Shown here piece after piece: positions 8,437 to 59,430 of a stretch of 64,000 bases of DNA. Position 1 is the stretch's first letter. Each line of letters opens with the position of its first letter. The notes below the pieces were generated by a model. It searched no databases and was not told the DNA's origin. It saw only the letters and a program-made list of their open reading frames with translations. Location: NCBI GenBank assembly GCA_008632985.1, contig QPGO01000002.1, forward strand, positions 806,001 to 870,000, given 5' to 3'. Position numbers and translations under genes: made by a program. The stretch comes from Psammoneis japonica. Lineage: Eukaryota.

Positions 8437-8879
8437 GTTTAGGGTTGTTAGAGGGAAATAACCAACAAGGTTGTAATGGGAATCAACAATAATAATAGCA
8501 ATGCAAGCGCATGATTAGGAACTTGTTTCTTCATCAAAAATTATAATTCTCAGAGAGAGCGTCTGTTGAGCGCATGGCTAACGGAAACGAATGATTCCTC
8601 TTGAAAGCCCTCTACAGTATGCTTAGATTCATTGGCCATGTGGATACAGCGGTCAGCGGAGTTTGCAATAAAGAGCGGATGCCATGGTTCAGCAGAATTT
8701 TGTTGTGCTTCATGCATCATCTTTCCCGCGCAAAATTCGCAGACGCACGGACATCGTATCGTTAGTCGCGTTGGGGGTGCTGGTACAACGATGTGTGTGG
8801 CGTGATGACAATGATGCATTGAACTGCGCTAGAAGCAGAAACAACAAGAACCAAACGATGCTCCAAAGAGAGAAACTGT

Positions 8880-10202
8880 CCTGACCTCATGCATGTGGGT
8901 TCCATCTTGGGTCAAACGAAAAACCGGCTCAACAAGACTGTTGTTTCATGGTGGCAGCCACCTCAAGCGGAAGAGTGCAAAAGGTGGCGACAGGCATCGC
9001 CATCAATGCTGGTCAGCTGAATCAGCCCAGTGCTGCAGGCAATGCTCAAGATGAGAATGAATCAATGCCAGCATGGTCAGAAACATGCAGCAAACACTGA
9101 TGCACCTCGCAAGAAGGAGCAACACTGCCGCACATTGAATGAGCTCTGGACCCAAGTGCAACCTGCACTCTGATTGTTCAATCAAAACACCACTTGCAAG
9201 CCTTCATTTGATCCTAGATTCCCTTCCTTGACTCTTGGACCCACTCTTGCACATTGAAGCTTGCCAAAAATTGCGTGCCAACTGCATCACACAGGGCTCC
9301 TTGATTAAAAAAAAAAAAACCGTGGTCAGCAAAGGGCGAGTCTTCAAACAGCTCGGCTTGCTCTTTTGCAGAACAAAGTCCAAAAGCAACAGTGAATGCA
9401 CATCAGTTGCAGGGTTCACCATCACTGTCTGCAAGAGATGCCATGTGTGTCTGCTCTGCTTGCTCTTGGACATTGTGCGCACCACCGGGTCGAGTTGCTG
9501 GGTCTTGCACTCGACGCTGTCTTTGGCTCTCCATGAATCAAAGACGCCAATCCAGAGGCAAGGATGGTGAGGGTGGCAAGAGCAATTGGAGTGACATGAG
9601 ACATGATTGCAATTTGGTGTGTGAGCATGGCGAGTGAGCAAAAAATGATGCAGTGCAAAAAGTGACAAGAGACAACTGCAAATTGTGAGCGTGCGCATGA
9701 CAAACCCCTCTGGCCAACCCTGGCTGGCTGCACCCCAGAAAGGCCAAACCAAGCCAACGCCCCCTCAGGTTACACTGGAAACCTCAACAAGTTGAAAGAT
9801 GGAGACCGCAGAGATGTCCTTGCTTGCAAATTGTGGGGCAAGGCAGCAGCCAGACAGACACAGAGAGCTCGTGGCAGTCCCTGACACTGACGTGCAAAGT
9901 CTTGCCAATCTAAGATGCTGGAACAATTTTTGGCAGATCATGAACAAGAGAAAAAGTGCAAGTGTCTCAAGCCTTGCCTTGAGCAGCATCGCCATTTCGC
10001 TCCATTCGTGATGTCATGCGATTGGCTGCTTTGCAAGAAAGCCGAAGCATTGCTCCATCTGACAGAGGCCGGCTCGACCAGCAGCCAAATGGCAGAAGAC
10101 ATGTTCAGAAGACAGCAGCTGCATCAATGCTGGAATGAGCAGAAGCAATGTGAGGGCAACCCACCGTTGCCTTCGAGGGTCTCGCGTTCCCTCATCCCAG
10201 AT
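8880..10202 (+). mobile_element. Degenerate 3' part of an RLE-type (CRE/R2-like) non-LTR retrotransposon
   Basis: Broken frames read SA-RDAMC, DTD..KS, HEQEKKCKCLKPCLEQHRHFAPFVMSCD..L.K.AE, KW and VRATHRCLRGSRVP. This matches the restriction-like endonuclease C-terminus (EKKRKY..CLEQRRHF.PFV.S.DG, VRATH.CLRGSR) with Tyr>Cys changes. The tract is strongly TpA-depleted. Confidence 0.75.
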
Positions 10203-10645
10203 CGTTTGTGCAATGTGCAGCTGCCAACAAGAGTTGGTGTGTCACGGCGACGTGTTACAGCCTTTAAATGTCACAAAGGGCGTGACAAAAACAACCTTTT
10301 GTCTGCATGCATGCTGCATTATCCTTGTGTCCAGCTTTGGCCAAAGTTGGCCACATATCCGGGTTTTCCTTGGTACATATTCAGCGTACATTCTACGCAG
10401 TTGGCCAACATCGACTCGAGCTCCGATGACTGGTTTCAGATTTTGCGGCCGGCTCGCGCGAATTTTTCGTTTTTCGACGTTTATTATGCAGCATTTCTGT
10501 TTGAAAATGTCCACAATTATGTTGTATTTTATTCATTATATATATGTTAGCACTCGCCACTACACGTTTGTACCAAAGCACACGTAGGGCAGATCGCTTC
10601 ACCGAGCTCGATTCGAACGAAATCCCGTTTAACTGGACTCAAGGN

Positions 10646-15252: not shown

Positions 15253-15739
15253 TGTTGTTGCAGTCCTTTTTAAATATATGAAATGACTCTAGAAAGATTC
15301 GAGTGAATGAGGAAAAAACAAAAAATGCTTCGCTTCTCACGTGTTGTTGACCATGAAAAATGGTGCGGTGGTGGCGTTGATGAGGTGATGTGTCGTGTGT
15401 GCAAAATCTTGCGCAGAAAGCACGACCGCAGCTGGTCGAATTTTTTAATATACAAAAATGAATGTTTTAATAAAACATTTATGTTCAAGTTCAGTACCAC
15501 AACAGCCGTAGAAAAGACATTTTCTGTGCAACATTGAATGGCTGCCAGCTAAGGAAAAGACGTCATTACTTAGGGATAGCTCTTCAGCATCACACAGAGT
15601 GGAGACGACGTCGTCTTTTGCATGCCCAATCTACAGCAATGGAGCCTTTTATACAAAAATTGAAGTCCTTAGATTCGTCAATCGAGCGAGTCAGATGCGC
15701 CACTTTTCGGCTTGCGACTTCAGCCGAAATCATCGACGA

Positions 15740-16990
15740 AAAAATGATGCAGGTGCGGTGGCATCGCTTGGCACTGTCAATGCTGCATCAACAACAGCGG
15801 CAATGTGCACCTTGACCTTGATGTGTGTCTTTTGAATCATGCAGTGCTCCACAATTTTCCCGAGTTCTTCGCTCTTGTTGTTTTTGTGTCCGCAAAAATG
15901 TCTCTTGCTCGCCACTGTCATTTGAGTCGTCACATCAGCAAAACTCATCTGCTGGCATGTCATGCTGATGTAGAGCCATGATGAAGCACATTGCACCACA
16001 TGTTGATTGATTTCTTCTGGGTGCAACTGCTTTCTTTTTCAACTTGGAGAGAGAGACACGCGCCACTTTTGCTGCCTTGTGTTGGCTGTTTTTTGTGATG
16101 CCTTGGCAAAGTTCAAAAGCACTGAAAAAGTGACTTTCCCACTGCTTGTCATGGCACATGCTGACCATTCACCAAAAATGTGAACTTTCTCCACATTCCA
16201 ATGCCAACAGGCTTGCCTGATGCCTCGCAGCTGGGAGAGATCAAGAGGGGGGGGTGAGTTGGCCCCGGGGTGCCACAGTGTCACTGGACAGCTCCTCTGC
16301 CACCCCAAAATGCTGCTGTGGCTGCATCCCAAATGTGACAGTGTTGTCTAAAGACCCCAGTGACCCTTCTTCATCATTGGAAAGTGCAAAGAGGTGGCCC
16401 AGTTGTTGTGTGCCTCTTCTTGCTTTTGAGAGCACTCTTGCTCACCCCCCATTTTTGCCAAATCTCCCAAAAATGTGTGAGCTGTCTTGCACCATCAGAC
16501 CCCCAAAAGACCCTTGTTTTGCCATTGGAAAATTGGAAGTTGCCACAACATTGTGGCAGCCAACCACTGCTCTCTGACTGCACGGCTTCTTGCTCCCATG
16601 TGCACACCAGAGCCACACTCTTTCAACCTCCACAGAAAAAATCAGCCTTGGCTTTGCTCCACTTTTTACCCTGCATCCAAACAGCTGCCCAATGAGTTGT
16701 TCTGGGAAGTTGTCAACAGTTTTTCACATTCAAACCCAGAGTCTGATTGCATGTCCAGCCCCAATCATCTGAAAATCCCAACAGCCCTGGCCCTGGCTAC
16801 AAACCAGGAGAGACACCAAGGGTTCAATGGAGCATCTAAAGCTGTGCATTCTTGTCATTGAGTGCTTCCCCTTGGCCAATGAGAAAAGCCAGAAATGTTC
16901 TTTTGGGCTGGCAACCCAACTGGATCATCAATCCACACACTCCTGACTTTTCTGCTTTTGCTCATCCTTTTCCTGTCCATGGTCAACCTT
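15740..16990. pseudogene. TpA/CpG-depleted degenerate tract of unidentified origin
   Basis: Very few TA dinucleotides and excess TG/CA. Only overlapping Cys/His-rich spurious ORFs are present. Confidence 0.55.
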
Positions 16991-19611: not shown

Positions 19612-20559
19612 GGCATGGTGTGTGCCGAAGCGAGAAGATGGCAGGTGCTTGATTTGGATTTGCCAGATTGCCGCAAATCTTTTTTGTTTTTTGATTTTTT
19701 TTTTTATCGATCTCGCACGGTCCGTCCGTTTGTCAATGTTGGCGACAACCCGTGACGCGGAAGGCATGGCAGGCATGGCATCAGAGTGTACGGAAAGTAC
19801 AAACAGTTTCGTGCTTCTCTAGTAAAAGAAGGTCTAGGGCTATGGCCTAATGGAAACAATGACAACGGTGCTTCAAAACTTACACCGTTTCGAAATTTTG
19901 AATGCTGTCCGTTTCGAGTTTTCGCTCAATTCCCGGAAAACACAGTCCCCTCTGTTCTTCCGCTGCAACAGTCACTTCCGTGCCTCCTTCTGCTGTTCCT
20001 TTCCATTTTCAACAGGCTCTTTAACCCTGCACTTGGTTAATTGAGTGATTGTTGTGGTGTCATGCAGGTCCAGCACCATGACGTCCAGCAATGTGTGGCT
20101 CTCGATCAAAATCGTGTGACAGAACACAGAACAGGTCCAAGCACCATGACGTCGAACAACGGGCGCTCGATGTGCCAGGGATCTTTTCTCTGAAAACGTC
20201 ACAAGCAAAAGCGAGGTGGATGATCTTGTGACCGAGATTCAATGACTAAAAACTCCCAAGCAGTGTCGAGGCTGCTGGCCGACGTTGGGTCGCCGTCTTC
20301 GTCGCATCCCCAAAGAGGACATGACTCATGAGAGCATCTTGGACCAATTGACTGAGAGTGAGTCACACCGGCCTCAAACTTGATGGCCTATGTGGAGCTG
20401 CATGGGACACAAGATGTGTTGAAGAAACGCAACTTGGAGACAATGCGCGACGCCAACTGGATCGAGCAAACAGAGTTGCCCGAGCCCACCAATGACCAAC
20501 TCACATGTGTGGCACATTGCAAGCTTGCAGCAGCAAAGCCTTCAGCCTTCTGACCCCAT

Positions 20560-23500
20560 CAACATGCACAAAAAATGACAATGCATGTGACCACACAGCT
20601 CCAATCTGAAACAGGCGGCTGTTCCATGTTTTCTCAGCTGTCTTCATTCATTTCAATCATGTCATGGACTGTGTCATGTCAGTTTTTCAATTTAAATTTT
20701 GCTTCCACATGTCCAACTTTTTCAATGTGAATTGCTTCCCACACTGTGCTGCTCATGTTGAGCATGTTGCCACAGCAACAAGAGCACAAGGCAAAACAGT
20801 GTTCAAGATGAGCCGCTCCTCTCTGAGTCTTTTTGTGATGATGGTGAGACCACACACGGGCAGCTGCATCAGCATCATCCCCAGATTCTGCATGGCACAC
20901 ACACATGCACACAAAACAGCAGATGCAGGCACATCTAGATCAGCATGATCTGATCAAGTTTCTGCCAAGATCTGCTTGCCTTTTTGGGGCAACTGGTGTG
21001 TTGTCACACTGCAAGCAGTGCATTTTGGACTCTGCCAGGTTTGACTGTCATTCCTCTTGCACCCTGTCTCTCACAGTCTCTTCTCTCAAAGAGTGGTGGA
21101 AAATGCACATCATGCTGGTGGTTGTCACTGGAATGACCCCAGCTGCAAGCCATGATCACCTGGTGCACTGCTTGCATGATGCTGGAGTGCTGCAGCTTTT
21201 GATGACAGCACTCATCTTTTCAAAGCCCATCTGCTGACTTTGAGCCTTGTCCTCATCCAGCTGAATCTCACCAAATGTCACTCAAAGAAGTGTCTCTGCT
21301 GGGGAGAACATCAAGCTGGCTCTTGGAGCATCCCTGCACAGTGGGTTTTTCACTTGCTCCCTTCCTCAAAGGCAGCTCCACACAATGGAGCATGTGGTTG
21401 GTTGCGTGCCCCCCCCCCCCAAAGCTCAAGCAGTCCAAGAGATTTGGCTTTGCACCTGAAGATGTTGGTGCACCTGATGTGCCTGAAATCACAGCCAATC
21501 ATGTCAAAAGATCCTCTTTGTGTTGATGCTTCTGGAGGCTTGTCAGCTGAATGTGCACAAAATGACCTGGCCAACCAGTGCAAACACCCAAGATGAGCAT
21601 GGCCAGCTGCTGGCTGCCTCGTGCATGCTGTCAGGCAACAAAAAACAGCAGGTTGTCAAAAGTCACATTGGCACAGAAATTGAAAGGTCAGGGGAGTTGT
21701 GTGAGCAGGAGCTCATGTCAACTCCTCATTGGTTTGTGTTTTTGATTGCACGCAATTGATTGTGCACAAGTTTCTCCAATCCCATTTGCCTGCCTGTTGA
21801 ATGCATGGTGGTTGTTGTCACAGTGTTGACAGGAGCCTGTCAACATGCACAAAATGCAAGCATGGGTGCTTGACTTGTTTTTCAAATCCCCCAAGCAACT
21901 GTGCCGCTGAGTCTCCCTGTGCTTCCATGGTTTGTGCCACCACTGCTGTGGTGGGCACCTTGCCCCTGGGGTGCACATGGTCTTGCTGTGTTGCCATTCT
22001 TGCGGTGCATGCTGCTTGCTCCCAAATGACTCAGGACAACAGCACCCAACAAGCAGCAAGATTGCACATCTCTCAATGCACTGTCTTGTGCATGAAGAGT
22101 GCTGTCATCATTTGCGTGGACAATTCTGACCTGACCTTTGTGACAGTCAGCTCCACATTTTGTCTTGTGTTCTTTTTTGATGAGCACCAACTGCCCAATG
22201 ACACATTTGCACACTTTCCATTTTACACTTTCATGTTTGTTGTTCAAGCATGCTGGCTTTGCTTTCTGTCCTGGACACACTTCCTCCACTTTCCCCAAAG
22301 ATCAACTGTGCGGGACTCTCCCACACAGTTGTGTGCACCCCAGCTCTTGTGGCAGAGGCCACAGAGTCAACAGAGTGTCATTCCATGGGTCATCCTCATC
22401 CAACATGTCCTGTGCTGAAAATGAACACACCACACATTGAGAAGCATCTGGCACATGCACTCTACAGTGACAGCACCCGCCTGTGGATTTCTCTTGCTTG
22501 TGGATTCATGAGCAATGCCACAGCCATTCTTGATCATCTCTGGCTGAACTTGGCCACAAATTCAGTGCCATGGTCATGGACAACCTTGCTTGGCTGTGGG
22601 TGCCTGCATGGCCAGGTTTGTTCCATGATGTTTGCTGTGTGTTCCTTGATCTGGAGCCACCCTGTCAGCCACACTGGGTTGATCATGGTGACTGCTCACC
22701 CACAACTGCAAAACATCCTTTCCACATCACTCAACTTGGGGTGGGGGGCAATCATGTCTGTTGGACACAAGGTCTCTCATGGGGTCATCTCAGCCACCCC
22801 CATTTGGGCAGCTTTCCATGATGCTGCATCTGGCATTTTGTCTTCATGACATTGTTCACACTTGGCACATGCAGAGTGCACCACAGCCATCACACTGGGC
22901 TGGCAGAAGTGCTGGGGGCAATTGACATTTCTGTGCATCATGTTTTGCCAGGGTGGAGCAGCATGTGGCACCACTCAGTTGGAGGTTCTTGGTGCTTCTG
23001 GCACAACAATTTTGTCCTGACAGCACATCAGCTGTTTTGTGATGCATCTCTCCCATGAAGTGCATGTTGTGTTTTCTCAAAGGTTGCTGGTGGTGCTGAG
23101 GTGTCCAAAGCTGCCTGAAGCAAATGCTTTGTGCAAAGGATGCATGAATCATGCATGTCTTAGATGACAGGATTGCCCCAATGCACCAAGCTCAGCTCCA
23201 GTGCATGTGCACATGACACACATTTGAACAATGCATTCCAGCCACAGGAGGTGGGGCTGCGCATGTGATGCTGGGTCCACAGAATTCTGCATGGAAGCTC
23301 CACAGCAAAATTGTCAGGCAACAAATTCATGAATGATTGCCAACAGAACTGTGCATGATTGAAGCACACCATCTCCAGGTTGCCCAAGCACTTTCTTCAG
23401 ATGTGTCAAAGAAATCACCCAGCCCATTTTGATCTCATGAGTGGTTGAAATAAAAAGCCTTTGGCTTTGCAAAAGAGGGAGAGCTTGAAGCAATTTGCAG

Positions 23501-24720
23501 ATGACCACATGCAAAAACATGGCAGTCACCAAGGCATCACCTTCGGGCAAACAGCACACAAGCAAGAACTTTTCTGTGCCCACTGCTGCGGTGTGTTTTT
23601 GTCCTGCCACACCTTGCTCAGAGCTGCACTGGAGTGACAAGTGCTCTTCACATGCACCCATGGCAATGCATGGAACACTCAGTTTGCGTGTTGGGCTGTC
23701 AGCATCAGCTGGCAACTTCCTGAGTGCACAGAATGTCTGGTGCTCTCCTTTCAACAGTGCCTTCTTTTCCAGACATTTTGTGGCAATTCATGGGTGGTTT
23801 GATCATCATCATGACCACCGCGCACTTGTGGGTGCAACAATGTTGCTGCTGTGCCTCGTGCACTGTCAGGTGACAAAAAATGGCAGAGGTTTTCAAAAGT
23901 CATGTTGAGGAAAGAGTTCATGTGAACAGGGAGCAGCACAAATTCCCCATTGGCTTGCATGATCAGAGTCCCTTGTGTGCTTCCATGGCATGCACAACCA
24001 CTGCTGTGTGGTGTGTGTCTCACCCCGGGACATGCACAGCCTCACCATGTTGCCAACAGTGTGGTGCGTGCTGCACACAGTGCTTCAAAGCTGCAAGAAA
24101 GAAGGAGACAGTGACAGAAAAACAGCCCACACAACAGGGCTGGCCACCACACCACCCATGAAGATGAGTGCAGATGGGCCTTGGTGTCCAGGAAGAAAAG
24201 AGAGCCAGAAACCTTCAAAGAGACAAGAAGGCCGAACATGAGTGCAAGGCCACCCAGAGGAAGTGCAAGGGTGTCAGCCAGCACTTTGCAGAGCTTTGCC
24301 CCTGCCTTTGAGAAAGTTGCTGATTTGTCATGACCTTTGGCAGCCACACCCCAATCTGCTCCCAAAAGTGAAGTGGGCAGCAGGCCAAGAGTCAAGAGCT
24401 GGTTTCTTTTTTGCAGCATGAGCAAGAAGTCTCTCCCCCCAACCCCAGCAAAGGAAATGGGGTTTTGATCTGGCCCTGAAAAAGCTTGCTGGTGTCAGTG
24501 CATTTAATGAGAGCTGAGTTGGAGCATGCATGCCAACACATGAAAGTGTGCATGCCTGTGCGTGCATGCAAAACAACAGCTGCTTTTTGGGTGGTTCTCT
24601 GTCTGCGAGCACTCCTCCTCTGTGGCCAACAGCTGGGCAAACTAGAATGGCACACTCAAAATCATAGAAACTGTTGATTGTCAAGCTGTGATTATTCTCT
24701 TGTCCATTTCTTAGCAATCT
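20560..24720 (-). mobile_element. Heavily degenerate Ty3/Gypsy LTR retrotransposon relic (integrase about 21850-23100)
   Basis: Minus-strand fragments: CCQDKIVVP..EWCH..LHPG..QHF..CEQC (H2C2 zinc domain), HGKLP..AEMTP.ETLC, AVTMINP..TGW, EQTWPCRHP.P..VVHDHGTEF, RNPQA and DDPW..RAG.HTT..SPAQLIFG. These match Gypsy integrase with Y>H/C substitutions. Boundaries are approximate. Confidence 0.75.
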
Positions 24721-30579: not shown

Positions 30580-32099
30580 TGACCTTCGCCGACAGCACAA
30601 TGCAAGGTGACCATCCACCTCAAAAAAAGCTTCTGCTGCTTTCATTCATTGGGTGCTGGGGAGACAAACTTATAAGAAATCTTTGAAACAATGGCAAAGT
30701 GACATGCAAAATGGGACATGATTTTTTGGTCTCTGATGGCGACCGACACAAAAAAAAAGCTCCTCTGGAGGTGCCACCTCACACAGAAGGTTGAGAAATC
30801 TTTTCTCTCTCGTGCGCGGCTCTTTGGCAGGGGGGCTGACCGTGCAGGGGGCAAAAGCCACAGCAAAAGAGCAGGAAGGACTTTATGACCAGCAGCTGTG
30901 ACACCATCAGCAAAACAATGAGCANAACAAAATTTCTGTGCTCAAACACCAACCTCCATCTCACAGAATGTGCTGAGGCAAAATGGCTTCAATGCTCAGA
31001 GATGCTGCCGGTGGCATCATCATGTCTGGGGCCTGCTGCACAATGTGCTGTTCATTGCATCTGGCACCAAGCTAACAGTGACAAGTGCTGCACAGAGTTC
31101 TGCTGCAAATCTGAGAAAAAAGAGCAAAAAAGCACCTGAAACGCCGCTGGACGAGAGGGTTGACATGAGGCCCTGCAAGCAGCAAAAATCAACATCTCAA
31201 AAACATCATCTCACCAATCACAGCCTTGCTCACCTGTTGCTGTAGCTTTGCCTTTACAAGCCAGACTGGTCTTGGAATTTGTGAGTGGGGGGTTCATGGC
31301 AGCAGTGTGGTGACACCATTTTTGGTGGTGTGCATGATTTGTGCGTTGTGCAGCAAGACATGTGAAAAAATGAGGCTTTTGTTTTGGAGCTCAGCTTTCT
31401 TGCACAGATTTGGCACCAAATTTATGTTGCACAAAAAATGCACAGAAAACCTTGTGATTCATCCAAAAGTGTCTCACCTGGAATGAAAGCATGCTGCAGC
31501 TTGCTTCTTCTTCTTGCAGGAGCATTTTTCTCAACTTGGGACTCACACGCCCTCTTCTTTCTCAAAAAAGAGCAGGCACAAACACTGCCAAAATGCGGAA
31601 GCAAAATTCTCAATTGTTTGGTTGCTGCCAGCTGCATCAGCATGGAGGCAAGTCCAACAAGAGAGATTGTGCTCAAGCACTTGCACAGGCAGCCAGCTCA
31701 TCTCGCTCTGTGTCTCCTCCACGAAAGAAGTGTCGACCAACTCTTTTTGACGCTGGCAGCTTTGATCAGCATTTCATTGGCAGCAATCTGACTGAGTTGA
31801 TTTCACAGACCAGATTCTTACAAATGGCTCTCACTCATTGTGTGTCTCTGACAACATTTCTCTGACAAAAGAGCTGCTGTGCACTGCCAGCAGTGTGCCT
31901 CTGTTGCTCCTTCAAGGAAGAAGAAGAGCCAGGTTGAAGGGGGGCTGTGGTGCAGCCAGAGCCACACATGTGTTGTTCCAGAATTGGATTTTCCAACATT
32001 CAAGATTCTGAGCTGGCTCTTGACACTTGTTGCCACTGATGATTTGATGCTCCATCTCATTTGTTTGGTGTGTTGCCCTCTGTTCCTCCGTGGTGTTTG
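30580..32099. pseudogene. TpA/CpG-depleted degenerate tract, possibly a decayed host gene next to the YR element
   Basis: Near-absence of TA, TG/CA excess and spurious Cys/His-rich ORFs. It abuts the element end at 32100. Confidence 0.5.
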
Positions 32100-32550
32100 G
32101 GATCCGAGCATTGACTCAGCAAACGACCGCTTCGGACTAGATCTCAATTGATCCCAGTCAAGAACCACCAAGAAGTAACAAAACCTTAAGATGCTTGGGA
32201 GACTCACAGAGCAGGGCTTTCGGCACAAGCTCTGCTCCGTACAAGGGGGGGTGGGAGAAACCCAAACCCTCCGCAGGGTCCTGCACCAGTGCAGGGGCTC
32301 TTCCGGAAATTCAACGGAGCACCAGTGCCTCGGGCGTTTCCGAGAGCCAACCCCTGGTGGCACACCCTTCGGCATTTCGCGACGTTGGGCAGTGACTGGG
32401 GGGCAAAGTGAGCACCTCGAATGAAGACACGCCAGACCAAGTTTTCCCGTACGAAAACTGAAGCCGTCGAAGGTGTTGTGCTGCGTTGTAGTCCCAGACC
32501 TCGTCTTGTCGACTCCCGAGGCCGAATGAGACGGGTCGAGCTCTAATCCC
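32100..32550. repeat. Split direct repeat B2 (about 451 bp)
   Basis: Aligns without gaps to 32813-33263. Confidence 0.95.
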
Positions 32551-32567
32551 AGGGTGTGGTGGGTGGG

Positions 32568-32815
32568 TAAAAAGAAGAATGCTTTTCCGAGCTTGAGTGA
32601 TCCAGTCACGATGATCAGGGTTCCTGTTCCAACAAAGCTGGAAAAGTGAGAGAAAAGAAAACCGAAGTTTGACCGGTCACAGTCAGAAGACTAGACCGAG
32701 TCATCTTGAGTCGGAAGTGCCCCACTTCCGTCGCGGATCCAGCGAGAGGTCACAGTCATCGAGCGAGGTTGGTTTGAGTCAGTCCGTCTCCATCTGAACT
32801 TGGGTGCGAGGAGGA
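32568..32815. repeat. Split direct repeat A2 (about 248 bp)
   Basis: Aligns without gaps to 41021-41268. Confidence 0.95.
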
Positions 32816-33263
32816 TCCGAGCATTGACTCAGCAAACGACCGCTTCGGACTAGATCTCAATTGATCCTAGTCAAGAACCACCAAGAAGTGACAAAACCTT
32901 AAGATGCTTAGGAGACTCATAGAGCAGGGCTTTCGGCATGAGCTCTACTCCGCACAAGGGGGGGTGGGAGAAACCCAAACCCTCCGCAGGGTCCTGCACC
33001 AGTGCAGGGGCTCTTCCGGAAATTCAACGGAGCACCAGTGCCTCGGGCGTTTCCGAGAGCCAACCCCCAGTGGCACACCCTTCGGCATTTCGCAACGTTG
33101 GGCAGTGACTAGGGGGTAAAGTGAGCACCTCGAACGAAGACACGCCAGACCAAGTTTTCCCGTACGAAAACTGAAGCCGTCGAAGGTGTTGTGCTGCGTT
33201 GCAGTCCTAGACCTCATCTTGTTGACTCCCGAGGCTGAATGAGACGGGTCGAGCTCCAATCCC
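32813..33263. repeat. Split direct repeat B1
   Basis: Aligns to 32100-32550 and overlaps A2 by GGA. Confidence 0.95.
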
Positions 33264-33376
33264 CCCCGATGAGAATCCTGGGTAGTGGCCACCAAAAATG
33301 TCGATCCGGAGAGCAGGAAGCTGGAAGACTGTCCTCCGGAGACCTGGCGTCACCAAGGGCTCGCGACCGTCCCGAG

Positions 33377-34930
33377 TCACATGGCCTTGGCACAACGCAG
33401 GAATGATGGCAAAAGAAGGGTAATGTCGGCATAGTGCTGGTGCATTTTGTGTGTGGGTCGTGCCGCACCTGATCTTTCCTTCTTCTTCCAACGGTTGACA
33501 ACGTCAATGTCATCTTCCGACACCTTCTGAGCAACAGCACGCGAGTCCGAACCCCGTCTGAACGAACGACTCACATCACACTTGTCCTGCACATCAGAGA
33601 ACGTGGTGATGTCCACTGCGAATGGGCTTGGGTGGTCCTCATAAATGTCTCCCAAGACTTCATGAAAGAAAACGTTGAGCTCTTTCGTAGATGAGACCTT
33701 TCCCTCCACATTTGATGTCGCTGGTCCACGCGTGCGCCGATGATCCCAGTGTAATGAGACTGCCGTTTCGACCCAAAAACGAAGGTTGACACCTGAGCTG
33801 GTGACATTGACACTGGGGAGGAGGTGCTGCCGCTCCCCATGCTCTCCCTTGACTCGGCCCAAAAGAGGGACGACAACATAATCCGCGTGTCTTGGGAGGT
33901 GTCTGACAAGAGCCCCCAAGTCCATAAGTGGGCCTTCGGGACCTCGAAGAGACAAGACGTAGCTAGCCGCAAAGTGCAATCCGCGTGCAAGGTAAATAAA
34001 TCTCTCCGCCTCTCCTGGGGCTCGGAGGGCCCTCTCCTCGACCCGAGGCAACAGATGTTGCATGACGTCGACCGACATCGCTCTGTCAGGCCTCCAGTCT
34101 TGGCCCATCCGTCTTTTGCATCCGGTCATGAATCGCTGGAACCACAGTGAAGCACACGGGTCTTCGCACATGCGCAGATGCTGTTTGCCTTCCAAATCCC
34201 CCAATGCCAAAGCTCGCGAATTGGCCTCCGCCGATGCGCGTACCTGGTTGGAGTGAGCAGTGCGCAATTTTCGGATCGTGTCAAACTGAGTGTACGATTC
34301 CGAGTGTTTTCCCGCCGCCGTCGAAGCCAAGACGATCTGCATGGCGACTTCATGTCCACAGTGATCATAGGGTGGGAGAGGGCCCGGCTCGAGGTAAGGC
34401 CCCGTTAGGCCCAGGCGCTCAGATGAGGCTAGGCCCCTCCCAACTCTCGACGCGTTTGCTTCGACTGTTGTCGATTCCCTGCTCCAAAACGCGTCCAAAA
34501 TCACTCTTCGAACACACGCTAGAGCGACCTCGTCTCAAGGTGATGAAGGTAGGGCCTCCCTCTGGCAGAGCTTGTGAAGTGCACAGGTGTCGCACTCAAA
34601 GGCAACCATTGGATGATCTCCCACGCGAGCCTGTACAAACTTGTTTTTGTCTTGAGGCTTCCGACACCAAGCATCATCGTCCAGCCTTGGGCAGTCCCCC
34701 CCCGAGAGATTGCGCGTTGTCGTTTTGAGGGTCGTCCTCCAGAGTCCCCCCCAGATGGAAAGTCACGCTTTCTCTCGAAGTGTGGCACCCTGGACACCAT
34801 GCCTTCCGACATGCCGGCCAGATTCCTACTCTGTGCACAAAATTTGCGCAAAACACTCCTTTCGTCCACCGCAGCATCCGGCCACACTCGACGCAGGGAC
34901 CGCTCCATTGCACACATTTTCGGGGTTCCC
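33377..34930 (-). CDS. Tyrosine recombinase of the retroelement (5' part frameshifted, Cys-rich)
   Basis: The catalytic residue pattern LRGPEG (R), RVKGE (K), SRSFRRG (R), NRW (W) and HYAD (Y) lies in ORF 33377-34504. Confidence 0.85.
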
Positions 34931-37900
34931 CGAAGCTGCCAAGGGCTGCAGGAGACGAACAAAAAAGAAGGCCAGTTGGCAAGGGCTCGAACATGTCACC
35001 TGGCCAGAACGGCCTTGATCCAGCCGGGACAGCAAACACCAGGTCCGCCGCCTTGTGCAACTGTTTCTGCCACTCCGGAGTCATCAAACGCGGGCAGATG
35101 AACACATGGAACGATGTCTGGCGCTTGATTCTTGCAATCCGGAGCTCTTCTAGGGCCGCTCTCGCCGCGGCTGGAGGTGGGGCCCAGACCCACGTGCCCG
35201 ATCTGAAATGGGGCATTTCGACAGCTTTGCAGGCTGGGTGGCTCCACCCCGCAATGTCATGACCCTTCTGATGCCAATCCAAGGGGGTCAGCAGTTCCGG
35301 AGCTGGAGTCCCAGCCCAAGATTGAACCCACGCAAAGAGAGCAGCCGACCGAGTTGTGGCTCCGAGATGGAGAGGGACAAACGAAAGCATCTTGGCTCCG
35401 TTCATGACACCCTCGGTCAAGACTCCCCTGGACACTCCGTCAGTGCCCTGAGCTGTCATCCGCACCCCCGAGACATGCACGAGACACAGCCCAATCCCAC
35501 ACTTAGCCTCCAAAGATTTCAAGCAAATGACCTGCTCAAGCAGCAGAGGGCTGGTCGAGGTGCCCTTGTGCCAAGCTGTTTCAGCAACTGAGTTGTCCGT
35601 AAAAAAGAACAAACACGCGCCGGTCAATTCCCCCTGCTCCCCAAGTTCTTGGATGGCGTCCACCGTGTTGGATAACTCTTTCCAGTTGGAGGAGTTCCCC
35701 AGATCATCATCGCCCCACACACCGATCCGAAAGACAATGGTTCCGTCCGCTGCTTCCAGGGAGGTCCCAAGGCCTTTTCCAGATGCATCCCCAAAGCCAT
35801 GGAGGACAGTGACAATCTTTGAGGACCGGATGACAACCGCAGAAGGGGTCGGAGACTCCGTGACGCGGGACATGGCAGTTAAATCCATGAACAAACGAGG
35901 GACAGCCGTGACCTGCGGAGGGGGCGGTTGATCCCTTAGCCCCTCAGCAACCTCTGACGGGTCAAGGCCCTGCTTCTCAGCGAGGTGGTGAATCCAGCTT
36001 GCGAATTCTTTCGCAGTCATCGCCCAACCATCCTTCTTTCGATTTGGTCGCCAGGAGTCGAGGGTCAAATGGATTCCTTCAAGGAATGGTGTTAAAAAGG
36101 GGTGAGTCATCGCAAGGTGGACTGGAAATCCCCTCTTCCACTCCAGATCCTCAAAGTCAAATGTAGGGAGGAAGCCCCCCGGACGCCCGGCGTAAAAACC
36201 AAGCAGTTCTGCAATGACACCCTTGGCTTTATCCCATTTGGCCTGGGAAACTGACTGAGCAACATCCCCATCGACAACTCGGAAAATGGCACCAGCCCAG
36301 GCTCCGGTCTCAACCTGCGAGGGGGGGCGCACCTTCCGGGCAGCATTCTGCAGTCCAAGATGCTGCAACCGCGAGGCCATTTGGTGAGCAACTTGCCAGG
36401 CGGATTCCTCATTAGCCCCCATTCCGCGTAAGTCATCAACGAATGTTTTTATGTCGCCAGCAATTTCCTTGCGACGAGAATTCCACTTCATCACGAATGG
36501 TTTCTCCGTCTGGAAGTTGGGATCCCCTGGCAAGTTTAGGAGCAGCTTGTCGCACCCCATGACATTGGAGAGTCGGTTTGGATCGCCTCTGGCAATCTCA
36601 TCGGCCCAATAAAATGCCCTCACCACCAAGCAAGGGCTGGGCCACATCCCCACAAACAAACGGTTCCAACACTCGAACCAGGGCGTGCCCGTCGAGATCA
36701 ACTCCTGGGACCCGAGACATGGCTTGAGAGGCGTCAAGTCGATCCCCGCACATGGCCGAATGTTGGGATCCATGAAGAAGTTTAAAAACATGTCGCCCAG
36801 GTCGAGATCCACTGAAAAGGCAGCACGAGTCATGCACCCCAGAACCGACACAGGAGTGGGCAAGAAAAACGAGGGTGCCCAGAGGGCGTCGTTTAACCCC
36901 GAGGAGGTTCCGTCATAAACCATTCGTACGTCTTCAACGATTTCCACCAAGCGACCATTCTGGGGTTCCACACGGACGGTTTTTGGGACCCAAAAACAAT
37001 CAGTTGGACTGACCACCCTCCCACGATGGACGCAACCTTGGTCTCGGACCTTTTGAATCTTGTCCACCATCCTAAGAATCTCGTGCTCGGACCCCCGGAT
37101 TCTCTGCCGTCGGCGATTGCGAGGGAGAGGGCCCTTGACAAATGTCTGGATCCCATCTCGAGCCCCCACCCGCTGTTCCGGAGTGGGCCACCGCCAGAAC
37201 AAAAGAGACGAACCTCGGTCCCAACTCCACCAGGAGCTGTCCAACACTTGCGCTGACACCTCAGTCCCAAGGTGTGCGTCTAGAAGCAAGGGTGGGAGTG
37301 GAGGGTGGCGGCAAACCCCCCCCTGAAGACGCCCGGTGGCGTCCCCAAAACGTCGGCGTTGTGTCGCCAGCATGGCGACCCAAGTCGGACCACACTCCCA
37401 GCGCAGATGGCCCAGAAAGGACTGAAGGGTCTTTTGCCGCCACCACCGGTGCGCCAAGTCCCGAAGGGCTGGCAAAGCCTCACCAGACCCCGGGAAAATC
37501 AAAGTGATCCTCTCATCCCACAACCGGAAAGGAGGGGCTGCCGCATCCCCCTTTGCAGCTTTCGCCGTCATGAGGGATGCGTCAATCCAAGTGTGGGGTA
37601 AATAGCGTCCGAGAGTCGGCAGCCACGTTCCGGCCTGGCAGACCGGGACCCCGACCTCCGTGTTGTCACACACCATGCCCCCAGGTTGTGACGAATTCCG
37701 GGGCGTGTGATCAACAAACACCTCCACAAAAAGTGTGAGGAGATTCAACGGGACAAGAGGAAATCCCCGCTCGAAAGCCTGATGTACCTGAGGCGTGCGG
37801 AAACACAGGGGAAAATCCCAGGCCGCCAATGTCTCATCCACAGACAGTGTGCGGGTGACCCAACCTGTCGGCGACCGATGCGATGGGTGCACGACTGGTC

Positions 37901-38432
37901 GGGTCAGAAACTGTGGGTTGAGATGGTCGCCCTCATTGTAAAATTCCCCACTCGGGTGTTGTGGCGATGGCGACCCGGGCAGCTTATAGTCGATGATGTG
38001 CCCAATGGACCGCCGCAGGCCTCCATCAAAGACCGGAGCAGGAACCCCCCGCCAGAAGAGTGCAGTCCGAAAGGAAGTGACACCGCCCACCACCGCATGT
38101 GTAATGTCCCGCCGCTGTAACTGGTTTAAACCTAGAAGACTGCGACGCGAAAATGCTCCCACAGGGATCATGATCAAAGATCCCGACCGCATTGTATGAG
38201 CTGCGGACTCAAGGAACGAAGGTGGCCCCGACACGAATACAACATCAACCCGCCTGGTCAGTTGTTCAACACTTGCCCATGAGACCCATGCCAAGGAGGC
38301 ATTCAATTGGTTCCGAAACAGTTCCACTGATAGAGAACCCCAGTGGGAGTCGTCGCAGCAGCAATGAACAGCAGGCCATTCCTTTGGTCGCAAGGACAAG
38401 AGCCAGATTGGGGGACCGGAGGCGAGAATCAA
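34674..38432 (-). CDS. Reverse transcriptase / RNase H polyprotein of the retroelement
   Basis: RT motifs RMVYDGT..GLN, DLDLGDMFLNF and TFVDDLR. RNase H motifs GFGDASGKG, SSNWKEL, FTDNS and HVSG.RM..QGTDGVSRG. Confidence 0.9.
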   Translation of the reverse strand: MILASGPPIWLLSLRPKEWPAVHCCCDDSHWGSLSVELFRNQLNASLAWVSWASVEQLTRRVDVVFVSGPPSFLESAAHTMRSGSLIMIPVGAFSRRSLLGLNQLQRRDITHAVVGGVTSFRTALFWRGVPAPVFDGGLRRSIGHIIDYKLPGSPSPQHPSGEFYNEGDHLNPQFLTRPVVHPSHRSPTGWVTRTLSVDETLAAWDFPLCFRTPQVHQAFERGFPLVPLNLLTLFVEVFVDHTPRNSSQPGGMVCDNTEVGVPVCQAGTWLPTLGRYLPHTWIDASLMTAKAAKGDAAAPPFRLWDERITLIFPGSGEALPALRDLAHRWWRQKTLQSFLGHLRWECGPTWVAMLATQRRRFGDATGRLQGGVCRHPPLPPLLLDAHLGTEVSAQVLDSSWWSWDRGSSLLFWRWPTPEQRVGARDGIQTFVKGPLPRNRRRQRIRGSEHEILRMVDKIQKVRDQGCVHRGRVVSPTDCFWVPKTVRVEPQNGRLVEIVEDVRMVYDGTSSGLNDALWAPSFFLPTPVSVLGCMTRAAFSVDLDLGDMFLNFFMDPNIRPCAGIDLTPLKPCLGSQELISTGTPWFECWNRLFVGMWPSPCLVVRAFYWADEIARGDPNRLSNVMGCDKLLLNLPGDPNFQTEKPFVMKWNSRRKEIAGDIKTFVDDLRGMGANEESAWQVAHQMASRLQHLGLQNAARKVRPPSQVETGAWAGAIFRVVDGDVAQSVSQAKWDKAKGVIAELLGFYAGRPGGFLPTFDFEDLEWKRGFPVHLAMTHPFLTPFLEGIHLTLDSWRPNRKKDGWAMTAKEFASWIHHLAEKQGLDPSEVAEGLRDQPPPPQVTAVPRLFMDLTAMSRVTESPTPSAVVIRSSKIVTVLHGFGDASGKGLGTSLEAADGTIVFRIGVWGDDDLGNSSNWKELSNTVDAIQELGEQGELTGACLFFFTDNSVAETAWHKGTSTSPLLLEQVICLKSLEAKCGIGLCLVHVSGVRMTAQGTDGVSRGVLTEGVMNGAKMLSFVPLHLGATTRSAALFAWVQSWAGTPAPELLTPLDWHQKGHDIAGWSHPACKAVEMPHFRSGTWVWAPPPAAARAALEELRIARIKRQTSFHVFICPRLMTPEWQKQLHKAADLVFAVPAGSRPFWPGDMFEPLPTGLLFCSSPAALGSFGEPRKCVQWSGPCVECGRMLRWTKGVFCANFVHRVGIWPACRKAWCPGCHTSRESVTFHLGGTLEDDPQNDNAQSLGGGLPKAGR

Positions 38433-38543
38433 GCAAGATCCTTGAAAACAGAAGGCCTTTCTGCCCCGTATGATGTGCCTTAGGTCATTCGGCCTATCGA
38501 ACGAGACCTGGCCCTCCCCCGTATCCTCCGTTCCCCATGAATT

Positions 38544-41008
38544 TCACTTCTTGCTCTCCAGAGCCTTAAGCCGACGAGTCAGGTCCTTAATTTCCGTTCG
38601 CAATTTGCCCAGCTCGACGTGCGCCGAGTCGCCTCGGGCCTGGGCTGACTTAGCCTCTGAGCTAGCGTTCTTGGCTTTCTCCGTTAGCATCAGCACCGAA
38701 GATTGCAAATCAGTTGCCACCTCGAATCCCGAGTTTGTAGCCAGAAACTTGACGCATTCCGACACCATAGAAGGGTGGTCGGTAAATCCTAGAGAGGTGT
38801 GCTCTGCCATGACATCGTGGGTCCGAAACACCGCCCACAAAATCTTGCTGCACACTGCATCTGGGTCCGTCCCGGAAATGGAGGTAAAAACCCCGGAGCG
38901 CGCCTTGTGGATGTCCTCGAAAATGCGGTGAGTCAATTTAGTCGTCAAGGACCACGCTTGCTTCTTGGAGAACTTGCTCAGGTCGGTGAGTGATGCACAA
39001 GTAGAGTCCATAAACTGAATTAGCGCCCAAAGAAATGCCACCGATTTCGACAATGCGTCCCGGACCACCTGACTTTCAAATGTTCCCGGTCTGATGCGTT
39101 GGTTAATGTCTTCCATGATGTCGCTCTCCGTTGTGGCGATCTTCCCCTCGATGAAGTGCTTTGTTCCGACATTCCCCGAAGACCAGTGTTCGTGGGTCTC
39201 GATTTTATCCAAGTGAGAGGGGTGCAAACCCAAGGTCTGAGACGACTTCGCAGATCCTGAGTCGAAGATCCGAGGCATGCGATGCTGGAAACCCGCCAGA
39301 GTTCGCGCGTCTTCCTCGGCAGCGACATTCATGCTCATTCGCTTGGCCCACTGAGATAAAAAGTGATGCAGAGCGGTGGGCTCAATCCCCTTAATTTGGT
39401 CCAAGAGCAAGACGACATCAGTTAAGCACCTGCATGCCCTCGAGGGGAAATGCTGTGTCATCCAGGCTTGACACTCCTCGTAGGATGACATGCCAACCCC
39501 CGAGAACTCAATGGCAGACTTGTCTGACTTTGCACGCAACTCACTCACAGCGCGGTCCAGGCGTGTGACCCTTGCTTCCACGGACCCTTGATCGAATGAA
39601 GCGCCGTGAGGTGCAAACCCCGAACCAAACTGGGACTCGATCGACCTGACCTTTGAAGTGAGCTGTGTGCACACACCCGAAGCATGTCATTCTTCAGGTT
39701 TTCCAGATCCGTGCGGCTGGCCGTCAATCCCATCCGATCTTGCATGTGTTGGAACTTCTCATTGAAAGTTCTCACCAGATTGTTAGATTGGTTTCGCCAC
39801 CCCGTCTCCACTTGTGTGACACGCTCGACTGGGTCCGGAGATTGGGTTCCGGCTTCCCGGGATGCAACGTTCGCCAGCGTGCCCCAAAGAGCAGGGGCAA
39901 GAAGAGCCTCATCAAACCCCTGGGTCGGTTCCCCGACAGACGCGTCGAGCTGATCCAGCTTCCGGCTTAGAATCTCAATCATGGACTCCGCAGCGTGGAA
40001 TCGCCTGCCAGCTTTGTCGCCAAAGTCGGCCAGTGCTTCCCCGGCTTGCCTCAACCCATCCTCGGACAACTGGACCACACGGGCCAACGCGGACGGACTT
40101 TTGTTTGCCGCCAGGAACTGCACCGGGGTGGAGAGCATTCGTTTCTCGTACGGCGTGAACCCCTCCAGCACGGTGTCCTCTTGAAGGGTTGACGGTTCCG
40201 GCCACTGCTTCCGAGCCGGTGTCTTGAACTCGGCCGCCCTTTCACACTCCATCAGGGCGGGTTCGACCTCGTCCTCGGTGGAAACAGGTTCGCCATTGCC
40301 CAGCACCAAGAATTTCTGCCGCCAACTGGCTGGTGCATCCGACTCGGCTTCCCACTTGACCAACACTCCACCAGACATGTTCCCGCTGCTTGGGATGGGT
40401 TGACAAAAACCCGTGTCCAGGGACTTGAGGATTGCTGCCATGCCCGACGCCGGAACACTCATCTTGCTGCCCTTGTGCCTCACATTACACTCGCTTGCCT
40501 TCTTGAGACAGAAGGTGGCTCCTCCGCCCTTGATCCCCAAGCACCGGGGTGCCCCAACAGCCTCCAGCCAGGTGATTCGACAACGAGGCACATGCGAGGA
40601 CGAAGAAGACGTGCCTTCCCTCTCCGACTCGACCGTGCCTCCGATGTCACCTGATGAATCCTGCCCAAAGAAACCAACCCGAGACGAGCGGGTTTCCCTC
40701 TGAACCGGGTGGGATGCGTCTCCTTCCAAAACGTGAGTTCCTGGAGGGTGGGAAATGACTTCCCCTGACTCCGCCCTGTCAATGTCCGACTGGGGATGAC
40801 CATAACCCCCCGAAATGTCATCGCTCATGCCTCGAGGATTTAAGCCCTCGTGACCCCCCCCCTGACGTGCAGCCCCAGAGGGGCGAGCCTGAGGAGAGGG
40901 AGCCGCCGGAGAGCTCGACGAGAAAGGCGAGACAACATCCGACTCCAGTTGACGAGCTGAATCAACGAACGCATCATCCGAGATGCCCGAGGCGAAGAAA
41001 TCCGACAT
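38544..41008 (-). CDS. ORF1 (gag-like, coiled-coil, Cys/His cluster) of the retroelement
   Basis: ORFs 39545-41062 and 38544-39674 are joined by a frameshift near 39670. It has a C-x9-C-x6-C-x3-H cluster and a coiled-coil C-terminus, and lies upstream of RT. Confidence 0.7.
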
Positions 41009-41020
41009 GATGAGGGAGAC

Positions 41021-41268
41021 TAAAAAGAAGAATGCTTTTCCAAGCTTGAGTGATCCAGTCACGATGATCAGGGTTCCTGTTCCAACAAAGCTGGAAAAGT
41101 GAGAGAAAAGAAAACCGAAGTTTGACCGGTCACAGTCAGAAGACTAGACCGAGTCATCTTGAGTCGGAAGTACCCTACTTCCGTCGCGGATCCAGCGAGA
41201 GGTCATAGTCATCGAGCGAGGTCGGTTTGAGTCAGTCCGTCTCCATCTAAACTTGGGTACGAGGAGGA
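41021..41268. repeat. Split direct repeat A1
   Basis: Aligns to 32568-32815. Confidence 0.95.
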
Positions 41269-43949: not shown

Positions 43950-44800
43950 TGATGATGGCTAACACTTTCAACTTTTGATCATCAAGAGAGCAGACACGAC
44001 AAAGTCTTCCTTGCTCCAAGAGCACCCATGGCACCATCTTTGGCTTTCAATTGGTCTGCTCATTTCCGTTTGAGTTTGTGAGCTTAGTACAACCTGTGGG
44101 CACGAACGATGGATGCCCCCAGCAGAATTCGTGTCGAGTTTTATGTGAATGACACCGTCGGCTCTCTTTGATGAAGCATTAAAACAAGTCACATGCAACT
44201 GGTCAAGAAGATGATTCTCCCCATTTTCATGGCACAGGCAAAGACAGCACTGTAAAGGAACTGATGCAATGTTGCCACGAGTGAAAAGCAAATGTGGGTG
44301 GAGGAAATGGGGTTTTTCTGCGACTTTTGCTGATGCCAGGAGCTGCGATCCCCCAGCATGCCCTTGCCACAATTGTTGCATCAGGAAGAAACTGTGATGC
44401 AATGCCCAGAGGAGGATTTGGAGTCAGTGTCCTGGTGCAAGACAGCTGATTTGCATGCTCATCACAAGCTGAGTTTGCCAGACAGCACGCCACATTTTTT
44501 CTCTTTGCGGAGGGGGGCAAAATGAGATGTGTGCAAGAGCTGCTCTTTTTGGCTGCTCATCATGATGAACTGCACTCATTTTTGAACATTGTGCCATTTG
44601 CTGTTGTGTTGCTTTCATGAGTTGGTGCAGCAAGGAAAGTGTGGCTGGTTGTGGAGCGGGGGTTTGGCGAGCTCTTGTGGAGCTGGGTCTTCTTGGCTGG
44701 CCAGAGGAAACCCTGCAGCTGGTGAGAGAAGTTTCTTTTGTGCAAAGAAAGCAAAGGAATTGTCGCAGTGTCAAATTAGCATGCCACACTTTTGATGTAG
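43950..44800. pseudogene. TpA-depleted degenerate tract of unidentified origin
   Basis: Low TA, TG/CA excess and spurious Cys/His-rich ORFs. Confidence 0.45.
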
Positions 44801-58166: not shown

Positions 58167-59430
58167 GGTTCAGTCAAAGGGTGATGTGACACCTTTTCCC
58201 AGCTCCCAGCACCCAATCCGATTTTGCAATGGGTTTGCGATATTGGCATCAAAATAATGAGCCTCTTGGAATCATCTGTCGCGCATCGCGCAAAGCAACA
58301 GGCGAGTGTGGCGCTGCGCCGTCGTCACCGGCACGTCCATCACATCTTGCACTGCAGGGCCTGCGCCTAAGGCAGGGCCCTCCACTCTCTCTAGCCAGAG
58401 CAGTGCTCCTGGCTCTAGCTAGAGAGGGCCTAAATTACAGTGGGCCCCAGAGAGAGGACAATTCAGTGCAGAGAGTGGATTGTGTTGCAGCACAAGTGCA
58501 GGCTGTGCAGGCCCTGGCTGCAGCGCAGCTCTGCAATGGGAAATGTGAGACAGCTGGACTTTCTCAAGAACGCTGCAGTGGGGCTTGCTCCAAGCAAGTT
58601 GGCCGGCCCTCTGCAGCAGCTGTGGGGCTACAAACACAATTCCATTGGCACCTGTGGATCCAGCTGCAGCCCTGGATCATAAAGCAGCAACCCGATTCCA
58701 CCATTTCCTGCCTGTGCACAGCTTGTCACAGACGGATCGTGCTGGCATCGAAGGACAAGAAAACAGAGGTGTGTCAACAGCGTCACTGTCGTGTTGCAGA
58801 GGAGGAAGTTGCAAAAGACCAAAACACTGACAAACATGATGCTGATGTTGTTCATCTGCCGCACGCTTCAGATCAAGTCCCACTGCGGCAGCAGTTTCTT
58901 TTCCAGTTGTCTCAGACATGGTTCAGTCAAAGGGTGATGTGACACCTTTTCCCAGCTCCCAGCACCCATTCTGTTTTTGAAATGGGTTTGTGCTGTCCTG
59001 GCATCAAAATCATCCTCTTGGAGTCATCTGTCACGCGTCGTGCCAAGCAACAGGCGAGTGAGAGTGCACGCTGCACCGTCGTCACCGGCACGTCCATCAC
59101 ATCTTGTGCTGGAGGGCCTGAGGCAGGGCCCACTGCTCTCTCTAGCTAGAGCAGTGCTCCCAGCTCTAGCCAGAGAGGGCCCAAATTACAGCAGGCCCTG
59201 GAGAGAGGACAATTCAGTGGAGAGAGTGGGCTGCATTGCAGTGCGAGTGTGGGCCATGTGGGCCCTGCAGTGCAGTTCTGAAATGGGAAACATGAGATGG
59301 CTAGACTTTCTCAAGAACGCTACAGTGGGGCTTGCTCTAAGTAAGTCGGCCGGCCCTCTGCGGCAGCCATGGGGTGACAAACATAATTCTACCGGCAGGG
59401 CCCCACCTGTGGATCCAGCTGTAGCCCTGG
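57925..59430. repeat. Tandem duplication of about 750 bp (57925-58675 / 58676-59430) covering the 5' end and upstream region of the 1797-aa gene
   Basis: Both units start atcataaag(t/c)agcaa and end cagctg(c/t)agccctgg. Confidence 0.92.
58677..58919 (-). pseudogene. Hypermutated truncated copy of the first about 80 codons of the 1797-aa gene
   Basis: MSETTGKETAAAVGLDLKRAADEQHQHHVCQCF versus MSKITGKETATAVGLDLKRAVDERNQRRVCQCF. Confidence 0.9.

Follow-up and report, generated by a model that had tools for sequence, protein, structure and literature searches.

TpA-specific mutation has depleted tyrosine codons in a Ngaro-type retrotransposon of the diatom Psammoneis japonica

Background

In ascomycete fungi, repeat-induced point mutation (RIP) turns CpA into TpA and creates stop codons. 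It shares with the pattern described here that dinucleotide-specific transitions accumulate in mobile DNA after insertion and without selection. We analyzed a 64,000-nucleotide stretch of the diatom Psammoneis japonica (assembly GCA_008632985.1, contig QPGO01000002.1, positions 806,001 to 870,000 of the forward strand; hereafter the window), which holds a whole Ngaro-type tyrosine-recombinase retrotransposon on its minus strand (the window copy, with its relatives in the same genome referred to as siblings). In the window copy, 195 of 298 TpA sites have been lost (105 to TG and 90 to CA), compared to 36 of 553 CpG sites and 11 private changes at 5264 other columns, and we consider it virtually certain that a mutational process directed at TpA is real in this genome. 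A first-pass annotation of the locus had contrasted this process with RIP, which agrees with our results: TpA is lost here, in the opposite direction to C:G>T:A change at CpA, strand-coordinated runs are lacking, and multi-copy rDNA keeps its TpA. Diatoms have a RID-related methyltransferase, DNMT4, with its function given as unknown in the relevant section of one source (PMC9998398), and we found 27 C5-methyltransferase matches in this genome.

The closest described case is that of the rhizarian alga Bigelowiella natans, where, according to the main text of a preprint, integrated viral DNA undergoes A:T>G:C hypermutation at TpA only, with new changes appearing in mutation-accumulation lines (Mettrop et al., bioRxiv 10.64898/2026.01.13.699255). 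Both cases involve A:T>G:C change only at TpA, yielding TpG or CpA, and confinement to foreign or mobile DNA. In the diatom, these transitions are likewise restricted to TpA on both strands, and elements are TpA-poor (observed/expected ratio, o/e, 0.1-0.3) while host genes (approximately 0.4-0.7) and 18S rDNA (0.86) are not. TpA-depleted reverse transcriptase (RT) and DDE sequences are also remarked upon in the preprint text, which places the strength of the process at ~1000-fold over background, compared to several hundred-fold in the diatom. The two cases differ in their material: two viral regions mutating in culture, of which the nucleocytoplasmic large DNA virus (NCLDV) region is single-copy with a Rho TpA of 0.45, as opposed to nearly saturated retro- and DNA transposons present in many copies (o/e 0.1-0.3). 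Within its main text, the preprint proposes ADAT2 with no enzyme demonstrated, and the terms 'diatom', 'tyrosine', 'stop codon', and 'trinucleotide' each have 0 occurrences there. Our literature search, the coverage of which lay outside subscription journals, found no diatom report of this signature. Since the signature matches that of B. natans, the process is not categorically new; rather, this is a second-lineage case of a recently reported process, to which we add its protein-level consequence, the absence of selection, and a 3' context rule.

Enzymes of the TadA/ADAT2 type and adenine base editors (ABEs) provide a further point of comparison, as they convert A to G with a strong preference for a 5' T/U and, for TadA8.20, a 3' U (PMC12027372, in the portion consulted). 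Those enzymes act on tRNA or are engineered, whereas the specificity for TpA seen here is near-absolute and concerns chromosomal DNA.

Loss of TpA in the element and its relatives

The first-pass annotation had read changes of TAY to TGY or CAY and of CTA to CCA as TpA changes, and the substitutions do derive from TpA>TpG/CpA. Between the window copy and its closest sibling (L031), 384 of 9159 aligned columns differ, including 158 in CA/TG doubles, 81 pairing TA with TG/CA, 93 pairing CG with TG/CA, and 11 transversions. The direction, TpA loss, is fixed by the tyrosine columns of homologues together with TpA depletion. Our site analysis covered five of 21 copies and the multiple alignment nine; among the 298 TpA-origin sites of the five close copies, TA and CG never occur at the same site. 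We excluded sites that are fixed, as TG or CA, in each of these copies, so TpA loss is underestimated and concordance biased downward. Even so counted, arithmetic on the window copy places TpA loss ~250-fold over background per base pair and ~10 times above CpG loss. There were 0 transversions at 51 TA sites, and AA>AG change was at background (12 of 829 sites, compared to 21 of 1044 for GA).

TpA depletion extends throughout the family, with an o/e of 0.09-0.29 in 20 of its pol regions and 0.08-0.20 in six more, compared to 0.42-0.87 in 78 outside relatives (one copy, L039, and two of 80 outside loci were dropped for short coverage). No TpA-normal copy of this Ngaro family was found among the 26 regions measured, where search counts are lower bounds. 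The losses also depend on the following base: fitted rates were 0.87 for TAT, 0.73 for TAC, 0.42 for TAG, and 0.30 for TAA (235 sites; likelihood ratio test statistic 119, 3 df).

DNA transposons of the piggyBac type show the same pattern, which shows that the process acts on DNA. In one pair (L080 and L090), 49 of 51 TA sites were converted and two ran in reverse, and 10 of 16 piggyBac matches have a TpA o/e <=0.18 while six are not depleted. Two piggyBac-like copies (L079 and L080) have a transposase with normal TpA (0.45) while their relatives are erased. A 400-bp tract in locus L085 (L085/L093), in which 14 TA and 7 CG sites were lost together, was considered as a local burst and rejected; since 11 of the 20 other differing columns lie in the same tract, it more probably reflects a chimeric assembly or conversion from a dead sibling. 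In host DNA, eight 18S rDNA matches over seven contigs (L072-L077) have kept their TpA, with most of their differences in the flanks examined, and a 99% identical duplicated host region, which may be a haplotig, is untouched by TpA loss.

Layout of the Ngaro-type element

Ngaro elements are defined, in the relevant part of the source, by split direct repeats in the order A1-[ORFs]-B1A2B2 and three open reading frames (ORFs), including RT/RNase H and a tyrosine recombinase (PMC8547959). The features of the window copy are as follows (window coordinates).

32100..41268, minus strand: whole Ngaro-type tyrosine-recombinase (YR) retrotransposon, A1-[gag, pol, YR]-B1-A2-B2, from its repeats and at least 20 other genome copies
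41014..41268, minus strand: terminal repeat A1 (5' end), mostly spared TpA loss, from repeat comparison
38544..41008, minus strand: ORF1, gag-like by position, without a Pfam match; interrupted in the assembly by 2 extra bases at 39669-39670
34963..38432, minus strand: true pol frame (about 1157 codons) with the RT and RNase H-like regions, conserved Asp intact and Tyr depleted; 582 homologues
34674..34962, minus strand: end of the 1252-codon frame, recombinase N-terminal sequence read past a one-base deletion, from comparison with the closest copies
33377..35101, minus strand: tyrosine recombinase ORF, catalytic part 33377-34534, from the fold match of an outside homologue and a 567-aa frame in L031, L033, L034, and L041
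32813..33263, minus strand: repeat B1, from repeat comparison
32561..32815, minus strand: repeat A2, from repeat comparison
32100..32550, minus strand: repeat B2 (3' end), from repeat comparison

The element thus named shares with the Ngaro superfamily (DIRS order) the split repeats, three ORFs, RT/RNase H, and tyrosine recombinase, and differs in its length (~9.2 kb compared to ~6 kb), in domain matches below Pfam thresholds, and in having RSFRR in place of His-X-X-Arg. The split direct repeats A1-[ORFs]-B1A2B2 are present. For ORF2, RVT_1 matched below the cut-off in all six homologues scanned (best E 2e-5) and the Asp motifs are conserved; the RNase H label is based on motif and position, with no profile match. 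ORF3 is identified by fold as a tyrosine recombinase, in that the predicted model of an outside homologue matches the folds of Cre (E 4e-5, TM 0.55), XerH, and lambda integrase. Pfam searches with the window ORFs returned nothing informative, and PDB sequence searches with pol and with the recombinase were uninformative. The gag-like ORF1 is a long frame at the expected place, again with no informative Pfam match, and is uninterrupted (865-866 aa) in L032 and L043. Homologues of pol number 582 at E<=0.001, those with names belonging to the diatom Fragilaria crotonensis, and the named relatives of a host protein are likewise from diatoms. The siblings, at least 20 in number, are 64-96% identical.

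The outermost repeat A1 (41014-41268) has lost 0 TpA in the first 400 alignment columns in three of five copies (the window copy, L032, and L033). Copy L033 carries an additional A-B repeat unit at its 3' end (L033:8383-9901). Copy L032, 95% identical to the window copy, has 208 transversion columns and a gap in late pol, which suggests that it carries a deleted or recombined segment.

Losses follow insertion and are unselected

TpA losses occurred after insertion, on both strands, and with no sign of selection. The post-insertion timing follows from differences between repeat pairs and from the independence of outcomes between copies: the window copy's own repeat pairs, over 699 bp, differ by 25 events, of which 18 are TA-type and the remaining 7 CG-type, and any two copies that both lack a TA have the same outcome at only 47-59% of their shared losses. 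The fraction of TA kept is nearly uniform, at 0.23 in Tyr codons, 0.27 across codon positions 2-3, 0.28 across positions 3-1, and 0.27 in non-coding sequence, and TG accounts for 0.53-0.61 of outcomes among silent, missense, and non-coding changes alike (Fisher p 0.94). As retention and the TG:CA ratio are alike across these classes, TpA loss is unselected. Other private changes in pol are evenly split (24 silent, 24 missense), which is what lineages active up to their insertion would be expected to show.

Conserved tyrosines and the flagged residues

The first-pass annotation had flagged Cys, His, and Pro residues within nine motifs of the pol and recombinase frames as replacements of conserved Tyr or Leu. 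On the minus strand, we find each of the nine motifs just as it was given. We compared pol with 120 outside homologues and the recombinase with 67 outside loci, with the following results.

36996..36998, minus strand: Cys (TGT) of SPTDCF; homologues Tyr 68, Phe 32, Cys/His 0 of 110; siblings TGT, TAT, CAT
36750..36752, minus strand: Cys (TGT) of RPCAG, not diagnostic; homologues Tyr 53, Phe 29, Cys 16, His 13 of 120
36630..36632, minus strand: Cys (TGC) of PSPC; homologues Tyr 95, Phe 23, His 1 of 120
36360..36362, minus strand: His (CAT) of RLQHLG; homologues Tyr 91, Phe 20, His 4 of 120
36123..36125, minus strand: Pro (CCA) of GFP; homologues Leu 109, Pro 0 of 120
36102..36104, minus strand: His (CAC) of MTHP; homologues Phe 85, Tyr 34, His 1 of 120
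35799..35801, minus strand: His (CAT) of VLHGFG, preceding the RNase H-like motif GFGDASG; homologues Tyr 110, Phe 9, Cys 1 of 120
35568..35570, minus strand: His (CAC) of AWHKG, a variable column; homologues Tyr 41 of 120; copies a Cys/His/Tyr mosaic
33578..33580, minus strand: Cys (TGT) of KCDVSRSFRRG, not the nucleophile; outside loci Tyr 47, Phe 16 of 65
33431..33433, minus strand: Tyr (TAT), putative recombinase nucleophile, kept in the window copy; Tyr in 63 of 64 outside loci

Seven of the nine flagged columns are thus nearly without Cys, His, or Pro in outside homologues, and two columns are variable. At RPCAG in particular, where the annotation had counted on homologues being free of Cys and His, 29 of 120 carry one or the other. 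A TGY/CAY mosaic is still seen across the nine aligned copies at both the RPCAG and AWHKG columns, and sibling copies show a random Cys/His mosaic at the flagged codons in general.

The same depletion is seen when pol is taken as a whole. Across 16 columns in which half or more of the homologues have Tyr, the window copy has Tyr at three, Cys/His at nine, Phe at three, and Trp at one, and over all 21 copies these columns hold His 106 times, Cys 95, Phe 48, and Tyr 42. Tyr makes up 0.48% of the window pol (6 residues), compared to a homologue median of 2.12% and a minimum of 1.44% (n=120), a depletion that far exceeds chance. In the recombinase, six of eight conserved Tyr columns are changed in the window copy.

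Open frames and inactivation

The first-pass annotation had described an inactivation that preserves ORFs, and by enumeration TA>TG/CA change indeed never makes a stop codon; for this very reason, preservation is an arithmetic by-product, and it is also temporary because CpG decay adds TGA stops in siblings. The only stop that either decay route can create is CGA>TGA. Of 17 in-register stops in eight siblings, 15 are TGA, mostly at CGN columns; 16 of 20 siblings have stops in pol and four have none. With 12 CGA codons and 6.5% CpG loss, the chance of an open pol in the window copy is ~67%. The related claim that the process removes TAG and many TAA stops also stands as enumeration, with TAG always removed and TAA removed when the outcome is CAA, and TAA and TAG triplets occur in the element at about half their frequency in host DNA while TGA is unchanged. 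The element's own stops are another matter: read-through of real stops was not seen, as gag and the recombinase end in TGA in all nine aligned copies.

The pol frame had been given as open for 1252 codons. The frame from 38432 to 34677 is open for that length, but its last ~95 codons lie past a one-base deletion at 34962, where one base is missing relative to the four closest copies, and read recombinase sequence, such that the true pol frame is about 1157 codons.

Disablement by missense change, as the first-pass annotation had proposed, is well supported for the siblings and is inferred for the window copy. In pol codons 1-1152 of the window copy, TpA-driven changes amount to at least 51 missense and 22 silent. 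At the putative nucleophile Tyr (33431-33433), to which position, conservation, and fold assign this role, 13 of 18 siblings have Cys and the other five have His. A tyrosine recombinase without its nucleophile Tyr cannot integrate, so these 18 siblings would be unable to integrate with their own enzyme. The window copy, in turn, retains all the catalytic residues examined, namely the putative nucleophile Tyr and the conserved Asp of RT and RNase H. Its inactivity is inferred only from load, that is, from the missense burden of pol and the six of eight changed recombinase Tyr columns.

A candidate mechanism and its alternatives

In the explanation that we favor, a host process acted after integration and changed A:T to G:C only where A follows T, on either strand and site by site, inside putatively silenced mobile DNA. 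Each TpA would be struck once, as neither TG nor CA can serve as a target again. The chemistry may be conversion of adenine to hypoxanthine by an enzyme of the TadA/ADAT2 family directed to heterochromatic DNA, with G fixed at replication, and the role may be one of genome defence, whereby elements are killed by missense load and most cleanly through loss of the recombinase Tyr nucleophile. Adenine deamination by a TadA/ADAT-type enzyme on silenced DNA is the mechanism that we favor as best, with somewhat better than even confidence. In needing a 5' T and in acting best at TAT, the process resembles TadA8.20, and a spectrum made up of transitions is in keeping with hypoxanthine. In the portions of the sources consulted, TadA8.20 prefers UA and edits UAU best (PMC12027372), while an early ABE prefers YAC (PMC12703980).

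Several observations weigh against deamination. In a fixed reporter, TadA8.20 is no less efficient at UAG than at UAC, according to the part of the source covering it (PMC12027372), unlike the fit obtained here. No enzyme was identified, as the nine deaminase-domain matches in the genome resemble an ordinary set. The best TadA-like protein keeps Asp at the position of E. coli D108, where the main text of the B. natans preprint argues that Asn matters (10.64898/2026.01.13.699255). A TadA-like deaminase fused to a 2OG-Fe(II) oxygenase (L055:313-1785) was considered as a candidate and rejected, being common to many diatoms. Strand-coordinated TG/CA runs were found in none of five copies (p 0.10-0.82), and since runs are expected from a processive single-strand deaminase, their lack weighs against such an enzyme. 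TpA loss and CpG decay are weakly coupled (residual r 0.16, p 0.09). Finally, A>G on one strand and T>C on the other look alike in sequence data.

This last ambiguity leaves room for a thymine lesion, in which an enzyme would modify, e.g. oxidize or O4-alkylate, the T of 5'-TpA in silenced DNA, causing this T to pair with G and yield T>C. Modified thymines that pair with G are known, the resulting spectrum is formally identical, and independent single-site events without strand runs suit a low-level miscoding base. We know of no thymine-modifying enzyme with TpA specificity, and there was no TET/JBP match in this genome, although the control was not recovered, so absence cannot be concluded; overall, we regard a thymine lesion as unlikely. 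Slightly less likely still is error-prone repair synthesis of the polymerase eta or iota type at methylated, mismatch-rich transposon DNA, where G would be placed opposite T. TA and CG losses do share blocks of DNA, and polymerase eta favors A after T or A; it also strikes AA and makes transversions, whereas here AA>AG is at background and the 51 TA sites have no transversions. Furthermore, TA loss is ~10x CpG loss and independent of CpG distance (rho -0.05, p 0.35).

Editing of RNA or cDNA during retrotransposition, or divergence inherited from an active master copy, appears very improbable. ADAR-type enzymes prefer a 5' U, as noted in the main text of the B. natans preprint (10.64898/2026.01.13.699255), and a sense-strand excess of TG is seen in two of five copies (p 0.002 and 0.01). 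However, both outcomes are found in every copy, outcomes are independent between copies and unselected, and DNA transposons are struck equally, so that the piggyBac result largely refutes this explanation. The least credible alternative, in our judgment, is an assembly artefact in which a modified base flips the long-read consensus between TG and CA at a true TA. The assembly contains indel errors, and random TG/CA outcomes would be expected from strand-specific miscalls. We examined an independent k-mer assembly of one public run, which is one sample, possibly the source sample, with its platform not on record, and which holds only 0.44 of the window's sampled words. From it, 805 short contigs that vary in their identity align to the stretch, and the 40 of 275 event rows listed include six CA/TG doubles, five TA>TG/CA changes, and four cases of TA where the window has TG/CA. 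The presence of TG/CA alleles in short-read-type contigs, as opposed to a uniform TA state, argues against a base-calling artefact. Among the public RNA runs listed, none contained the stretch.

Significance of TpA-directed mutation in a diatom

A mutational process known from one preprint is now seen in a second, distant lineage, where it is far stronger and its protein effects can be shown. Annotation will call dead elements of this kind active because their ORF length looks intact even though most Tyr has been lost. Divergence-based dating of repeats is likewise badly inflated in such genomes, since ~87% of the differences between two close copies lie at TA or CG sites. A diatom would be a tractable system for finding the responsible enzyme, possibly an adenine deaminase that acts naturally on DNA. 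More speculatively, and with rather less than even confidence, diatoms might have an adenine editor of their own that is guided to DNA by chromatin and brings TpA sites in new insertions close to saturation, providing a missense-type genome defence of which tyrosine-nucleophile enzymes would be the surest victims, and which may be an ancient SAR defence shared with Rhizaria. Were this true, nature would have its own adenine base editor of chromosomal DNA in this enzyme.

Assembly quality and further observations

In the assembly, the gag-like ORF is frameshifted by the 2 extra bases at 39669-39670, and the recombinase ORF by the missing base at 34962 and an extra base at 34703. These indels may be assembly errors, because a host cytochrome c1 gene near 7240 also has a one-base frameshift, which is itself probably an assembly error. 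Small indels are present in the independent contigs at 41449, 41648, and 42312.

The window holds other TpA-poor tracts, at 8801-10300, 15701-16900, 19901-24600, 30601-32100, 44101-44800, 58501-59100, and 63401-63900. Several of these are also CpG-poor and look older, and the tract at 30601-32100 adjoins the element's 3' end.

Elsewhere in the genome, several copies of a C5 cytosine methyltransferase (L065, L066, L067, and L071; G000 contigs C301 and C297) are 91-96% identical and lie in TpA-erased DNA (o/e 0.07-0.11). Tyr makes up 0-0.3% of their residues, compared to 2.4-3.1% in three intact methyltransferases, and by this signature the copies are a putative multi-copy, methyltransferase-bearing repeat struck by the same process.

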